Positions 7,784 to 19,660 of a stretch of 64,000 bases of DNA are shown here, in pieces. The notes beneath the pieces were generated by a model, which was not told the DNA's origin, searched no databases, and saw only the letters and a list, made by a program, of their open reading frames with translations. Origin of the DNA: a virus (Duplodnaviria; Caudoviricetes). Within the stretch, counting starts at the first letter, position 1; every line of letters begins with the position of its first letter. The stretch is taken from IMG/VR virus record IMGVR_UViG_3300021368_000002. One strand, given 5' to 3'. The position numbers and the translations under genes are program-made.

Positions 7784-8116
7784 ATGTATTACATCTACGA
7801 ACAATCGACTACCTATATCATTGGCAAGCCAGACCGCAATGGTGTGGCTCGTCCAGATCATCGTCAGAGCTATAAAACAATGGCGGCGGCCAAAGCCGGG
7901 CTCACACGAATTGCAAAGGCGGAAGGCTTGTTGAAGACAGATCCTAACCATGCTGAGTATCGTTATGCGATAGCAGAAGCAGATTATTTCCATAAGAACA
8001 TTGAGAAGCAGGTGAAGCGAAAGGTGCTTGAAGGCTTTGGTGGCAAGGAGTTTATGGAACCTATCAACACCCCTTCCTATATGTCACCGTCAAGTGAATC
8101 ATATTGGAGTATGTGA
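7784..8116 (+). CDS. early hypothetical protein
   Basis: GAGGG RBS. Confidence 0.8.
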   Translation: MYYIYEQSTTYIIGKPDRNGVARPDHRQSYKTMAAAKAGLTRIAKAEGLLKTDPNHAEYRYAIAEADYFHKNIEKQVKRKVLEGFGGKEFMEPINTPSYMSPSSESYWSM

Positions 8117-8718: not shown

Positions 8719-8994
8719 ATGTCTAATTCAGTAACAAAAGCCGTCCAAGAGATTTACAAAATGGACAACGATCAGCTCAACCAAGTCGTTGAAGCGATTA
8801 AACTTCGTAGAACTTATTTGACTCGTGAGGCAGCTCGGTCTTTCCGAACAGGACAGATTGTGTCGTTTACATCTCGCACAGGTGGCAAAATTACAGGTTC
8901 TATTCAAAAGGTCAACCGTAAGTATATTATCGTTGATGCCCATGTAGGTGGCACACGATACAAGGTGCCTGCGTCAATGCTGGAGACTGTATAA
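8719..8994 (+). CDS. early hypothetical protein, SH3-like pattern
   Basis: promoter 8653; GQIVSF..ITGSIQKVNRKYIIV. Confidence 0.8.
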   Translation: MSNSVTKAVQEIYKMDNDQLNQVVEAIKLRRTYLTREAARSFRTGQIVSFTSRTGGKITGSIQKVNRKYIIVDAHVGGTRYKVPASMLETV

Positions 8995-10050: not shown

Positions 10051-10269
10051 ATGGCAACAGATTTGAAAAGCACCACAGAAGATGTTAGTTTGACTCGCTT
10101 CTGGGGTGGCAAAGACCGCGGAACTTGTGTTCAAGTCACAACCACATACACCGCTCGTAGAGAAGACTTCTTCAAACATATATCGTTGACTCGAGAACAG
10201 GCTCGTTCTGTTGCTGAGGATTTGATGGCATTTGCTGAAGGTAATGAAGAGGCAGACTATTCATTATGA
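10051..10269 (+). CDS. early hypothetical protein
   Basis: promoter 9988; GGAGGG RBS. Confidence 0.8.
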   Translation: MATDLKSTTEDVSLTRFWGGKDRGTCVQVTTTYTARREDFFKHISLTREQARSVAEDLMAFAEGNEEADYSL

Positions 10270-16342: not shown

Positions 16343-16371
16343 AATATAGCACAAGCCTAGCACTATGTCAA
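16343..16371 (-). promoter_or_regulatory. divergent sigma70-like promoter
   Basis: reverse strand GGGG-TTGACA-N17-TATATT. Confidence 0.8.
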
Positions 16372-16399: not shown

Positions 16400-16453
16400 T
16401 TTCAAGAGGTTAGAAAAAAAATAAAAATAAATTTTTCTGCTAAGTCATTGTTT
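16400..16453. promoter_or_regulatory. inverted pair of IHF-consensus-like sites flanking an A/T tract
   Basis: TTTCAAGAGGTTA (16400) and TAAGTCATTGTTT (16441), each 1 mismatch from WATCAANNNNTTR. Confidence 0.45.
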
Positions 16454-16537
16454 TTAAACAAAACATTTTGCTTTACAAGTACGTATTGTTGTGTTATATT
16501 GTTTGTATGTTAACAAATGCATATAGGAGGGCAACAT

Positions 16538-16852
16538 ATGCAAACAACAACAAAAACATTAGACTGTGCTGTACGTGTAAATTGGGTAGCAGAGGATGCA
16601 GAATGGAAAGCAGAGTTTGAACAGTATGGCTATGACACAGATATGTGGGTTGCTGTAGGTGACTTTGATTATGAATGGAGAGATAACGTAGAAACTGTGG
16701 CTGTATTAAAAGACGAAGAATACGGTTTTATGTGTGGAAACGAAAGTGACAGGCGCTGCTACGGATTTACTGTGGATGTGTACAAAGCAGAGGAAGCAGA
16801 TGGCAACTACAGTTTTTGGATAACAGAGGAAGACTTTGAAAAAATAGGTTGA
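16538..16852 (+). CDS. acidic Pro-free early protein
   Basis: TTTACA promoter; GGAGGG RBS; ATG 16538. Confidence 0.85.
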   Translation: MQTTTKTLDCAVRVNWVAEDAEWKAEFEQYGYDTDMWVAVGDFDYEWRDNVETVAVLKDEEYGFMCGNESDRRCYGFTVDVYKAEEADGNYSFWITEEDFEKIG

Positions 16853-16913
16853 CAACTGTGTGTATGTGTGCTACTATGTACACATACACTAACAAGCAAT
16901 AGAGGGCAATGCT

Positions 16914-17165
16914 ATGCTTACAAAATACGAAAACGCAGTAACAAAAGCAATTGAATATTTTGCACTGCAAATTAACAACTGTGCGCACGACAGCGTAGTA
17001 GAAAACAACGACTACGGAATTTACGACAGCATAGACAGCATAAACTTTTTGTTTAGCAACTACAAAAATTTTGACAGCGTAACAGCACTTGCAAACTTTG
17101 CACTAGACAGCACACTGGATACTGTAGTGCGCGAAAACATATACTACGTGCTAACGGAAAAATAA
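16914..17165 (+). CDS. acidic Pro-free early protein
   Basis: hairpin promoter 16849. Confidence 0.8.
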   Translation: MLTKYENAVTKAIEYFALQINNCAHDSVVENNDYGIYDSIDSINFLFSNYKNFDSVTALANFALDSTLDTVVRENIYYVLTEK

Positions 17166-17231
17166 CACTTGACAACTGTGTATGTGTGCTATAGTGTACA
17201 CATACACTAAACATAGCAGAGAGGGCAAACT

Positions 17232-17447
17232 ATGCTACAAGTACACATTTTACAACTGCAAGGCACAGGCGACGACGAGAAGGCTTGGGAGAACGCAGGG
17301 GTGTTTGCAAGTTGGGAAGAAGCACAAGAACGTGCAGCAGAATTTAGCAAAGAAGACATTGAGGAGTACGGCGAAGCGTTTTGGATAATGGGCGAGAATA
17401 TGCGTATTGAAACACATGACGTAGTAGACAACAACTGGGGGTACTAG
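17232..17447 (+). CDS. acidic Pro-free early protein
   Basis: hairpin promoter 17169. Confidence 0.8.
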   Translation: MLQVHILQLQGTGDDEKAWENAGVFASWEEAQERAAEFSKEDIEEYGEAFWIMGENMRIETHDVVDNNWGY

Positions 17448-17519
17448 TAAAAAAAACAGTTGACAGCAGCAAGTTTTGTGTTATACTGTATGTACAGTTA
17501 AACAAAACGAGGGCTACGT

Positions 17520-17768
17520 ATGTTAACTACAAAACAACTTGCACGTAATGTGTTTTTAACTTATTGCAGCACTAGCAATACAATGTTTAAACATTGTAGC
17601 AAAACAAAGCCGCAGCACGTTAGCACAACAAACGTAAAAGCAGTAAAGCGCAACGTAAGCGCACAACTTGTGCAACAGTACAAAATGCTTCCTGCACTGT
17701 ACAACTTGTACAACAAAAACAAAAGTGTTAAGCAAACAGCAACACAACTAATTAACAGCATTGTGTAA
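17520..17768 (+). CDS. basic early protein with no Asp, Glu, Gly or Trp
   Basis: promoter 17460; GAGGG RBS. Confidence 0.75.
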   Translation: MLTTKQLARNVFLTYCSTSNTMFKHCSKTKPQHVSTTNVKAVKRNVSAQLVQQYKMLPALYNLYNKNKSVKQTATQLINSIV

Positions 17769-17842
17769 AAAAAACTTGACAACTGTGTGTATGTGTGCTA
17801 CTATGTACACATACACTAAACATTGCAACTAGTGAGGGCTAC

Positions 17843-18316
17843 ATGGCAATACATTACAGTACACAGGTACAAGACTACTTTGAACACTTGACAAACGAGT
17901 GTGCAGACGAAACACGTTTTACACAAGACGAAAAGTGTTTTGTGTTAGAATTTTTAGCAAACACACTGTATGGCTTAACGGAAGTAAACAGCGAAAGTTT
18001 GCGTGACGACAAGCAATTTGTGCGTATGCAAGATTGCAGTGAGGTAGCAGACAACTACGTAATGCTACTAAACAAACACAAACGCAGTGACTATACTGTA
18101 GTAAACGGCAAGTATGTGGAAAGTGACGAATACTATACGTTTACACTAGAAGATGCAGGCACTGCTATTTGCAGTTATGACACAGAGTATAGAGAGTGCA
18201 TAACAGAGCAATTTGAAGATGCACTTAACGAGTACTTTGCATTAAGCAAAGCAAACAAAATTGCAACACTTGATATTGCAAACTGTTTAGCGTGGCGAGT
18301 GTTTAACAGTTACTAA
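17843..18316 (+). CDS. acidic Pro-free early protein
   Basis: hairpin promoter 17776; ATG 17843. Confidence 0.85.
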   Translation: MAIHYSTQVQDYFEHLTNECADETRFTQDEKCFVLEFLANTLYGLTEVNSESLRDDKQFVRMQDCSEVADNYVMLLNKHKRSDYTVVNGKYVESDEYYTFTLEDAGTAICSYDTEYRECITEQFEDALNEYFALSKANKIATLDIANCLAWRVFNSY

Positions 18317-18386
18317 CGCTAACACTGTGCAGTGTGTGCAAATGCGTACACTGTGCGGCCCCGCTGTATAGCGGATAAAACATAAC

Positions 18387-18428
18387 AAAAACAAGCACTT
18401 ACAAAAAAAATGCTAAGTGCTTGTTTTT
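18387..18428. repeat. perfect 15-bp inverted repeat with IHF-like arms
   Basis: AAAAACAAGCACTTA-N12-TAAGTGCTTGTTTTT. Confidence 0.85.
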
Positions 18429-18513
18429 AAACGAAACTTTTTGCTTGCATTGTGCAAATAGTTGTGTTATATTGTTTGTATAAATTAAATGTAACAGCAT
18501 AGAGGGTAATAAT

Positions 18514-18774
18514 ATGCAAAACACACAAACAAACAACTATGTATTTTTAGCAGCAGCAAACGCTGCTATTGTTGTAACTGTAAACAACAAAGTTGTTGCT
18601 ACAGACGTACAAACAGCAGACGCACTTGTGCAAGTGTTTTTAACACATAATATTAATGTACTAAAAGACACTATTATGTGTAGCAGCAGCATAGATTTTG
18701 CAGAAGAAGAGGGCTTTGCTAGTGACGCAAGTGCGCATAATATAATAGATGAAGCATTTGAAGCATTAGCATAG
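18514..18774 (+). CDS. Pro-free early protein
   Basis: TTGCAT promoter; GAGGG RBS. Confidence 0.8.
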   Translation: MQNTQTNNYVFLAAANAAIVVTVNNKVVATDVQTADALVQVFLTHNINVLKDTIMCSSSIDFAEEEGFASDASAHNIIDEAFEALA

Positions 18775-18879
18775 TACGCTAATACTTTAGTATAGCAAGC
18801 ACTATACAAAAAAGTGCTTGCTATTTTTATTTTTTGTGTTATATTAGTTGTATAAGTTAACAAGCATATGAGGGCTATT

Positions 18880-19149
18880 ATGCAAAATACAACAACAAAA
18901 ACCGCACGTAGCATTGTGCGTAACATCCTAAAGCAAAACAACGTAATGTATTCCTCACATAGTTATACAAACAAATGTGCAAATCCTGCGCTGCGTAATA
19001 TTTGCTTCCTCACTAAAAACTTAACTCCTGCTGTGCTGCAACAAATTGCTTCTTCGCTTAATGTTAGCAAAGTACACGCAACAAAGCCTAAGTTTTACAA
19101 TGTGCATCCGGATGCACGTTACCTACGCATTGTGCATTGCAAAATGTAA
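18880..19149 (+). CDS. basic early protein (one Asp, no Glu/Gly/Trp)
   Basis: TTGCTA promoter; GAGGG RBS; ATG 18880. Confidence 0.75.
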   Translation: MQNTTTKTARSIVRNILKQNNVMYSSHSYTNKCANPALRNICFLTKNLTPAVLQQIASSLNVSKVHATKPKFYNVHPDARYLRIVHCKM

Positions 19150-19222
19150 AAAAAACGGTTGACAAGTGTGTTTGTGTGTGCTACTATGTACACATAAACA
19201 CTAAAAAGCATAGGAGGGTTAT

Positions 19223-19414
19223 ATGCTTACACTTTGCAACAAAAAACTGCTGCGTGACGGCAGTTGCGTTTTTACAAACTTTAACTTTTACAACAAAGTA
19301 AAAGATGCAGACGGAGACGTGTGCTACTACTACGCAAACTTGCACTACAAAGGCACTACGCAAAAATGCAGTGTTAGTGTGCAAAACGGAAACGTAGTAG
19401 GTTGGCAAACGTAA
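19223..19414 (+). CDS. Pro-free early protein
   Basis: hairpin promoter 19159. Confidence 0.8.
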   Translation: MLTLCNKKLLRDGSCVFTNFNFYNKVKDADGDVCYYYANLHYKGTTQKCSVSVQNGNVVGWQT

Positions 19415-19498
19415 AAAGTTAAAAAAAATGCAAATTAGGGGTTGACAAACGGCTCCTCCTTTGCTATAGTGTATGTATAGTTAGAGAGCGAGGGCAAG

Positions 19499-19660
19499 AT
19501 GATACGTTTTATGACAGGACTTTTTGTAGTGATGGCAGCAGTAGGTACGCTAGAGGCGAACCACGAGGCGAGCTTGCTATGGTACGGAATGCTAGGCTTG
19601 GTTGGTTGTGCTGCAATGGCATGGCCGGTATGTGACGGAACACTGACAGGAGACGAATAA
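19499..19660 (+). CDS. 53-aa membrane protein
   Basis: promoter 19442; read by eye; two hydrophobic stretches. Confidence 0.65.
   Translation: MIRFMTGLFVVMAAVGTLEANHEASLLWYGMLGLVGCAAMAWPVCDGTLTGDE

Follow-up and report, generated by a model that had tools for sequence, protein, structure and literature searches.

Phage T7 carries all of its EcoP15I sites in one orientation, the first-step-transfer DNA of T5 is without EcoRI sites, and the depletion of CpG in vertebrate RNA viruses evades ZAP. Other phages mark their DNA with 7-deazaguanines (dPreQ0, dG+) in short motifs: GA in iggy, GA together with GGC in CAjan and 9g, and what was deduced to be GA and/or GG in PA5oct. DpdA enzymes with GA or GA plus GGC motifs are known (PMC10484667, PMC7544227). 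PA5oct, whose modified G was assigned to the GA and/or GG motif by deduction, carries QueE and QueD and is restricted by END nucleases (bioRxiv 10.1101/2025.03.31.646159); the assignment comes from restriction digests, and ApaLI (GTGCAC) is at odds with it. The glycosylase Dag1 removes 7-deazaguanines and leaves nicks behind, with fragmentation that scales with the density of the mark (bioRxiv 10.1101/2025.10.29.685425).

We write YC for TC and CC and GR for GA and GG, a GR on one strand being a YC on the other. The DNA analyzed here, which we call the window, is a 64-kb stretch of the genome of an uncultured marine giant phage. It contains an early-gene block of about 3 kb, the island (16446..19453, + strand), in which eight tandem promoter-gene cassettes hold 25 YC in 3008 nt and GR is halved; the mean YC density of the window is 0.096 per nt. 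On the + strand of the island lie YC-free runs of 1165, 668, 541, and 332 nt, and gaps of such size were found for no other dinucleotide and nowhere else in the two relatives that complete our comparison set (G001 and G002, with genomes of 237-275 kb). Both are close relatives, with terminases 87% identical to that of the window phage; PA5oct, at 56% identity, is a distant one. A metagenome search found island DNA in at least 11 independent studies. The C content is 17% in the island versus 21% in the flanks, with AC and GC enriched, and the island shows no avoidance of TT or of AA, which is TT on the template strand. A search of the three islands for further avoided words of three or four letters gave nothing convincing.

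The original prediction had called for a count of YC and GR co-occurrence, and the count upheld it. The 25 YC and 218 GR of the island form 7 pairs within 10 nt where 37.9 are expected, a value reached in 0 of 5000 random placements; expressed as a density, pairs no more than 10 nt apart number 2.3 per kb in the island versus 194-213 per kb in the flanking early genes. Resampling the synonymous codons of each protein gave far higher values of both steps, with 5-29 YC expected per gene and zero reached in none of 5000 resamplings for most genes. For the two genes that do contain YC, gA and gX, the same procedure predicts 9.9 and 12.5 GR, whereas 0 and 2 are observed. The one-strand pattern was confirmed to lie far above chance.

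Six of the genes, all on the + strand, have no YC and encode no proline: g1 (16538..16852; 104 aa, acidic; 52 GR), g2 (16914..17165; 83 aa; 16 GR, with a minimum of 13 and 22.7 expected), g3 (17232..17447; 71 aa; 40 GR), which has orthologs in both relatives, g5 (17843..18316; 157 aa; 41 GR), g6 (18514..18774; 86 aa; 13 GR, with a minimum of 12 and 23.8 expected), and g8 (19223..19414; 63 aa; 12 GR), the last gene of the island. As g2 and g6 illustrate, many YC-free genes are also close to the lowest GR count that their proteins allow. For every island gene called in the window phage and its two relatives, the smaller of the YC and GR counts is at most 3. Up to 56 GR are tolerated in a single gene, yet such genes have zero YC and zero proline codons; conversely, the families with at least 3 YC among the island genes of the three phages always have 3 GR or fewer. 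Genes with proline codons, in which YC is unavoidable, have been brought to 0-3 GR through synonymous sites where 10-14 are expected. YC is used freely only in the gX family, and in the gA family and one other both steps are near the minimum that the proteins permit. We tabulated 26 island genes across the three phages, and 21 of them have the purge on their sense strand.

This arrangement is maintained while the sequences themselves change. In five YC-free ortholog pairs between the window phage and G002, 306 of 1452 aligned nucleotides differ and no YC has been created, an outcome with a probability of about 2e-3 to 1e-12 per pair under random substitution. The possibility that the composition is unselected, which the original prediction had named as its undoing, is contradicted by these substitutions and by dN/dS ratios of 0.11-0.30. 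Gene-level exclusivity is real, conserved, and selected despite heavy sequence divergence, and its cost to the proteins is plain: island genes with GR have given up all proline, and those with proline have lost almost every Asp, Glu, Gly, and Trp residue. The unit of recoding can be read from a gene outside the island (10051..10263, + strand), which has 16 YC in the window phage; recoding has left the G001 homolog with 0 YC over its entire length, promoter and stop codon included, so the unit is the transcription unit.

The two genes of opposite polarity are short and basic. The first, gA (17520..17768, + strand; 82 aa), has no GR and 3 YC, of which two fall at its 2 proline codons. The earlier claim of a stretch without GA or GG at 17515-17777, encoding a product without Asp, Glu, Gly, or Trp, proved accurate, and the gap as measured spans 17513-17777 (266 nt). 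The second, gX (18880..19149, + strand; 89 aa), has 19 YC (10 TC and 9 CC; minimum 7, expected 26) and 2 GR (minimum 1). Also as foreseen for 18876-19157, it is rich in YC and has a lone GGA (19110-19112) after a tract without GA or GG at 18874-19109; the encoded protein has a single Asp and is devoid of Glu, Gly, and Trp. The gA family forms 15 clusters with 0-2 GR in all DNA versions seen and dN/dS of 0.12-0.19. The gX family, represented by 68 metagenomic DNA versions, shows a basal split between versions with no YC and 3-25 GR and versions with 3-19 YC and mostly 0-4 GR, the window's own subclade keeping 11-19 YC; in phages without an island, the family carries both steps (9 YC, 11 GR). 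The dN/dS range of 0.11-0.30 given above is that of gX and includes the gA values, and synonymous divergence lies between about 0.6 and saturation. Judged from their sequences, both are real genes. The predicted fold of gX is a confident one (pLDDT 93.6); when it was compared with the PDB and with AlphaFold clusters, the only matches were two-layer alpha/beta folds of a generic kind (TM about 0.5), which assign the protein no function. None of the island proteins had a significant match in Pfam or PHROGs, and searches of cultured phages with the island and its left flank as nucleotide queries and with g5 and gX as protein queries gave no match. In two metatranscriptomes, g1, g2, and g5 are covered by short, low-depth contigs, which may reflect DNA carry-over; neither gA nor gX is covered. 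Antisense transcription was considered as the cause of the switched polarity of gA and gX and was rejected because no minus-strand promoter lies over either.

Signals between the genes follow the same composition. The first island promoter (TTTACA-17-TATATT with TG; 16472..16500, + strand), the g6 promoter (TTGCAT-17-TATATT; 18445..18473, + strand), and the gX promoter (TTGCTA-16-TATATT; 18818..18845, + strand) are free of both YC and GR, as is the terminator hairpin in front of the g6 promoter (about 18393-18428). The GA-free -35 boxes noted previously at 16472, 18445, and 18818 are therefore present, but they belong to a separate promoter class, each being paired with a TG-extended TATATT -10 box. 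The YC-free tract begins 27 nt upstream of the first -35 box (about 110 nt in G002). At the right edge, YC returns at 19454, in the spacer of the promoter of the next gene (19442..19470, + strand), which lies outside the island. The sole noncoding YC of the island is in the element GGCCCCGCTGT just 3' of g5 (18357..18367, + strand), of which a copy, GGCCCCGCTG, is retained in the islands of both relatives. Each island also keeps a few close bistranded sites: the palindrome TCCGGA in gX (19107..19112, encoding His-Pro-Asp), which places YC beside GR on both strands and is conserved in G002, the sequence GGCCCCGC, conserved in all three phages, and a few others. The original prediction that YC does not occur on both strands of the same stretch consequently stands for whole genes and breaks down at short range, where TCCGGA and GGCCCCGC persist.

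Several of these observations indicate at what level the rule acts. Genes with 40-56 GR admit zero YC, so it is the second strand that matters and not total density. Together with the removal of GR from the proline-containing genes and the near-minimum GR of many YC-free genes, this argues that the rule acts on the duplex and not on RNA alone. The genetic code can account for the usual removal of YC from the coding strand, since dropping proline and the TCN codons of serine is cheap, whereas only basic proteins such as those of gA and gX can do without Asp, Glu, Gly, and Trp.

The explanation that we favor, tentatively and at somewhat short of an even chance, is that the island is DNA that can be modified on one strand only and that survives modification-dependent host nucleases or glycosylases, with GR as the context of the modified guanine. 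The early cassettes have been rewritten to keep the guanine-purine/pyrimidine-cytosine step on one strand per cassette, often thinned there too. GR would be the context in which this phage lineage swaps guanine for a 7-deazaguanine-type base, and the marks of a given cassette could then all lie on a single strand, in most cases the non-template one. Host enzymes that remove the mark or cut at it (Dag1-like bifunctional glycosylases, END, or other modification-dependent nucleases) would nick only that strand, no double-strand break would arise inside the cassette, the template strand would stay intact in most genes, and the incoming DNA could still serve for expression of the first genes, perhaps counter-defense genes. 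The earlier suggestion that the arrangement stops opposed single-strand lesions from becoming double-strand breaks is plausible, and the candidate agent is now a concrete one. A clean template cannot be the whole story, because gX keeps the motif on its template strand. The one-strand rule entails the absence of GR-containing palindromes as a by-product, so thin marking of the island would not increase its exposure to classical restriction there. In its strongest form, the proposal is that of a break-proof early-gene array, in which the phage has purged its own modification motif from one strand per cassette so that host enzymes nick but never break the DNA or block the template; this is conceivable and on the doubtful side. 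Counter-defense written into coding sequence through the two-strand geometry of damage would, if true, be a new principle, and we claim this with equal reserve.

The gene content of the relatives bears on this proposal. G001 and G002 encode FolE, a QueD-like protein, and a QueE-like protein, and PA5oct has these in common with them. The search for 7-deazaguanine precursor genes found no QueC, and none of FolE, QueD, and QueE lies in the 64-kb window, which is part of the genome. Profiles PF01702 and PF20314 had no match in G001, G002, or PA5oct, and PF01702 likewise fails to detect the DpdA known from 9g and CAjan; BLAST with the ORFs of 9g and CAjan, including the CAjan DpdA, gave no DpdA match. 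Observed/expected ratios of palindromes with and without GR did not differ genome-wide, in a comparison in which the positive controls likewise failed.

The main rival places selection at the level of RNA, with messages kept free of YC against a host or phage factor that reads YC; the transcription terminator Rho is the best documented reader of this kind, and a YC-specific ribonuclease would be another candidate. Rho accepts 5'-YC, with Y being U or C, at its primary binding site (review PMC12360218). The purged pair is exactly this ligand, the purge favors the sense strand as counted above, and it proceeds by transcription unit from promoter to stop; six of the eight island genes have a sense RNA without YC and that of gA comes close, but gX has 19 YC. 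A reader of RNA leaves unexplained the purge of GA and GG at synonymous sites of the YC-bearing genes, the near-minimum GR of many YC-free genes, and the 11-19 YC in gX of the window's own subclade, and it does not account for the YC-free DNA that precedes the first transcription start, beginning 27 nt ahead of the -35 box in the window phage and about 110 nt ahead in G002. We consider this reading unlikely, with more in its favor than the alternatives that follow.

In a further alternative, a host or phage enzyme, either a deaminase followed by uracil excision or a dC-specific nickase, would attack cytosine at TC or CC in DNA, and the island would confine its targets to one strand so that lesions never face each other, by the same duplex-level logic as in our preferred explanation. 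Cytosine deaminases of single-strand DNA typically act at TC and CC, and TC is also the preferred context of T4 endonuclease IV. We nevertheless regard this as improbable: evidence of such an enzyme is lacking for these phages and their hosts, the remaining 270 kb or so of each relative shows no YC avoidance, and there is no signature of C-to-T decay, C being near normal with AC and GC enriched.

Generic avoidance of restriction, in which palindromes with GR or YC are removed and asymmetric sites are held in one orientation, could block enzymes of type III and type ISP, whose sites must lie head to head. Palindromes with these steps do fall from 11-19 to 0.7 per kb (4-base) and from 3.6-6.3 to 0.3 per kb (6-base), and the single orientation of the EcoP15I sites of T7 is a similar case. 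The loss of such sites was thus rightly foreseen, but it is not the driver, as palindromes without GA, TC, GG, or CC are enriched 1.7- to 3-fold in the island and only those with such steps are missing. Four-base palindromes without GR or YC reach 58 versus 32-34 per kb, with 45 copies of TGCA, 22 of GTAC, and 21 of ACGT. Furthermore, a ban on isolated YC with no GR nearby eliminates no palindromic site, yet the GR-rich genes tolerate none, and site avoidance is not known to have stripped any protein of its proline altogether. We judge this reading very improbable. That the island is a mutational relic of strand-coordinated hypermutation or an unselected, non-gene composition is scarcely credible, since the clustered, strand-coordinated loss of TC/CC or GA/GG resembles deaminase footprints but the reading frames are unbroken and come with promoters and ribosome-binding sites, the dN/dS values, synonymous divergence, and gX fold are those described above, C is not depleted as decay would need, the trait survives hundreds of substitutions, and the DNA recurs in at least 11 independent studies.

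Three further ideas were rejected. UV 6-4 photoproducts form at TC and CC, but their avoidance would leave the template unprotected, and TT and AA are not avoided. Avoidance of CRISPR PAMs (CC, TTC) fails because GG and GA remain on the duplex and the PAMs persist on the other strand, and a general reduction of RNA structure is at odds with the abundance of perfect GT/AC hairpins.

If one-strand guanine marking is correct, a phage's own DNA modification shapes its coding sequence down to amino acid composition, and the strand geometry of modified bases, on one strand or both, is a selectable trait against modification-dependent defenses. Motif-free cassettes would also serve as a computational marker of motif-marked phages, of the identity of the motif, and of first-acting, likely counter-defense genes. 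Even if the agent is Rho or an RNase, the island represents a set of proteins without proline codons in a widespread marine phage clade and a case of nucleic acid selection overriding protein composition.

Relative to known systems, the island is closest to 7-deazaguanine marking, with which it shares the same guanine-purine dinucleotides, FolE, QueD, and QueE in close relatives, and the lineage of PA5oct. It differs in that those papers describe marking of whole genomes, in that scans of 9g, CAjan, and PA5oct revealed no island, and in that no DpdA was found here; we found no report of a one-strand motif purge of a gene block in the 7-deazaguanine phage literature searched. The likeness to Rho utilization sites lies in the same TC/CC dinucleotides on the sense RNA, a comparison that leaves the GA/GG purge unaccounted for, and our literature search returned no natural set of YC-free transcripts escaping Rho. 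As in the restriction escape of T7 and T5, immunity would be written into the first-acting DNA by an asymmetry of strand or orientation, with no inhibitor protein; unlike in those phages, the unit is a dinucleotide pair and not a 5-6-bp site, whole proteins are recoded gene by gene, and other palindromes are kept. Finally, as in CpG depletion against ZAP, a dinucleotide is purged by codon choice and hidden from a sequence reader of the host. That depletion is partial, genome-wide, and at the RNA level, whereas the purge in the island is total, local, and strand-exclusive and alters the amino acid composition of the proteins.

The plus strand of the island at 16446-19453, which comprises eight tandem promoter-gene cassettes (g1, g2, g3, gA, g5, g6, gX, and g8), is free of TC and CC (YC) over 16446-17609, 17692-18358, 18362-18901, and 19123-19453; the window mean is 0.096 YC per nt. 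The two genes named as exceptions in the original prediction are exactly those found, together with one more interruption, the element GGCCCCGC at 18357. The first, gA (17520-17768, plus strand, 82 residues), has three YC and sits inside a 266-nt stretch without GA or GG (GR). The second, gX (18880-19149, plus strand, 89 residues), has 10 TC and 9 CC and runs without GR for 237 nt before a single GGA within TCCGGA. The C content of the island is not lowered as decay would demand; each C follows a purine, AC, CA, and AA are enriched, and no other dinucleotide shows a gap of comparable size. No other such tract occurs in the window, and the related contigs G001 and G002 hold one main island each, with one extra gene in G001. 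The observation is confirmed, and no description of such islands was found in the literature searched. The purge tapers off past the right edge instead of ending sharply, and the first gene beyond it (19499-19660, 53 residues, hydrophobic) has 2 YC where about 11 are expected. Just beyond the left edge, a near-consensus promoter on the minus strand (TTGACA-17-TATATT, 16343-16371) points leftward, and the DNA downstream of it carries both steps.

Across all island genes called in the window, G001, and G002, the smaller of the YC and GR counts is at most three. Island genes reach 56 GR, and then have zero YC, and where Pro forces YC, GR falls to about zero, which shows that the second strand matters and not total density. 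Mutual exclusivity of the two steps, as predicted, thus holds at the level of the gene. The short-range count proposed as its check also came out far below random placement: island DNA has 2.3 YC-GR pairs within 10 nt per kb and the flanks 194-213, and the separation of the island's 25 YC from its 218 GR at 10, 20, and 50 nt was matched by 0 of 5000 random placements. At this range the prediction was nevertheless overstated, since a few closely spaced YC/GR pairs have been conserved: gX keeps TCCGGA, one ribosome-binding site has GAGGGCC, and all three phages share GGCCCCGC. The only conserved noncoding island site where YC meets GR is the GGCCCCGCTG element, just 3′ of a gene and kept in all three islands (window 18357-18367; G002 locus L013, ~8892-8902; G001 locus L012, reverse complement, ~8039-8049). 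The either/or rule is a strong tendency and no law.

The YC purge is under selection at the levels of both codons and amino acids. When each protein was held fixed and synonymous codons were drawn from flanking early genes (5000 redraws), 5-29 YC were expected per island gene, and zero was reached in 0 of 5000 for most genes; for gA and gX, 9.9 and 12.5 GR were expected and 0 and 2 observed. Pro makes up 0.6% of island residues vs 3.2% in the flanks and is absent from all GR-bearing island genes, and nearly all Ser codons are AGY. The least possible counts per protein, computed by dynamic programming, place GR near its minimum in many YC-free genes (g2, 16 vs 13, with 22.7 expected; g6, 13 vs 12, with 23.8 expected) and not close to it in others, g3 and two G001 genes among them. 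Both steps are at their minimum in gA (3 YC, 0 GR) and in a third family, found in G002 (5 YC, 2 GR); gX alone leaves YC relaxed, at 19 vs a minimum of 7.

The same property marks the 3.2-3.5 kb islands of G001 and G002, in which gene order is shuffled and the genes are partly different. Five ortholog pairs that the window shares with G002, all free of YC, differ at 306 of 1452 aligned nucleotides without one YC created on either side; random substitution would create YC about 1 time in 5, which puts the chance per pair at ~2e-3 to 1e-12. Among the metagenome-contig strain variants listed, 27 of 28 create no YC, and the exception lies close to the end of one divergent contig. Outside its main island, G001 has a second, single-gene unit (G001:C1:77037-77318, in L012) with zero YC from promoter to stop, which identifies the transcription unit as the unit of recoding. 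Its homologs have 16 YC in the window (10051-10263) and 6 in G002, and from these sequences the set looks like recoding caught at differing stages. Contigs of other strains (window 16849-19200) order the cassettes differently, with joints from 16850, 17135, and 17440 to 18377/18383, and lack 0.9-2.1 kb, the breaks falling precisely at gene ends or promoters, so the cassettes seem to be shuffled between strains, or lost, as whole units.

The possibility that gA and gX are unreal or unselected reading frames fails on dN/dS (0.11-0.30, at synonymous divergences of 0.6 up to saturation), on the family data, and on the confidently predicted fold of gX, a small alpha/beta sandwich (pLDDT 93.6) for which a fold search gave no informative match. 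Both genes are under purifying selection. The gA family (15 clusters) has no Asp, Glu, Gly, or Trp except in two short divergent clusters, and 0-2 GR in all DNA versions seen. For gX, 62 protein clusters and 68 distinct DNA versions were recovered from metagenomes, and a well-supported basal split separates eight sequences with 0-1 YC, 3-25 GR, and no Pro from sixty-one with 3-19 YC and mostly 0-4 GR. Two versions amid ordinary neighboring genes carry both steps (9 YC, 11 GR); mixed versions also occur inside islands (14 YC/7 GR and 14/6), in part with YC adjoining GR. Direct evidence of expression is weak, with metatranscriptome contigs, at low depth, over g1, g2, and g5 only.

The source is an uncultured giant myovirus, and the window encodes a tail sheath, a T4-type terminase, DnaB-like and UvsW-like helicases, and three tRNAs. 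The phage's terminase is 87% and its DnaB 84% identical to those of its close relatives G001 (237 kb) and G002 (275 kb), two IMG/VR contigs that share a sample of origin. Island sequence was recovered from seawater, marine, and marsh metagenomes in at least 11 studies, which excludes an assembly artifact or a construct. G002 also has 19 matches to the Radical_SAM family (PF04055), 15 above the family cutoff, mostly within ~45 kb (G002:C1:19800-64100); the incomplete G001 has almost none.

Two documented readers fit the dinucleotide set exactly, a guanine mark in DNA and Rho on RNA. We tentatively favor the mark, with GR as its candidate context, because one duplex-level agent would account for the purge of GR from Pro-containing genes, its thinning elsewhere, the lack of YC in promoter DNA ahead of the first start site, and the either/or states seen across the gX family. 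Rho, whose primary binding clefts hold 5′-YC in RNA (PMC12360218), is an unlikelier reader, accounting for the sense-strand purge only. General restriction-site avoidance is not the driver, and in its appeal to palindromic sites the original prediction was mistaken: palindromes with GR/YC steps are almost gone, but those without them are enriched (per 3 kb, TGCA 45, TTAA 23, GTAC 22, ACGT 21). Separately, AGCT is absent from the island vs 2-4 per kb in the flanks (not significant in a Markov check over three islands), CATG is scarce there, and TGCA is enriched about threefold.

If tied to a GR-specific guanine mark, the predicted protection from double-strand breaks is the best available mechanism. 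Host enzymes that act on such marks include END nucleases and Dag1. Dag1 excises 7-deazaguanine and nicks DNA, with fragmentation that scales with the density of marks (bioRxiv 10.1101/2025.10.29.685425). We infer that a nicking enzyme would produce a double-strand break only where marks oppose each other, and that RNA polymerase should be stopped by template-strand lesions only; a cassette marked on one strand would then be break-proof and usually readable. Against the guanine mark count the template-strand motif kept in gX and the finding of no islands in PA5oct, 9g, or CAjan. A genome-wide comparison of palindromes with and without GR steps was uninformative, since it showed no difference and failed on the positive controls too. 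DpdA was not found, in a search equally blind to known DpdA: the PF01702 profile matched nothing in 9g (NC_024146) or CAjan (NC_028776), both known encoders, CAjan gp35 being annotated as queuine tRNA-ribosyltransferase, so negatives by this route are untrustworthy. At G001:C1:157339-160719, a QueD-like gene lies between one that matches phrog_1962 (a phage glycosyltransferase family, E 5e-26) and one for a UvsE-like UV-damage endonuclease; these neighbors hint that the candidate mark may undergo further elaboration.

Among known systems, DpdA enzymes of other phages have GA or GA plus GGC motifs (PMC10484667, PMC7544227). The nearest cultured relatives of the source are the PA5oct-like Pseudomonas jumbo phages (terminase identity 56%), and the FolE, QueD-like, and QueE-like proteins of G001 and G002 are common to PA5oct. 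For that phage, a preprint reports QueE and QueD, infers a modified G whose motif is GA and/or GG, and describes restriction by END nucleases, which act early (bioRxiv 10.1101/2025.03.31.646159).
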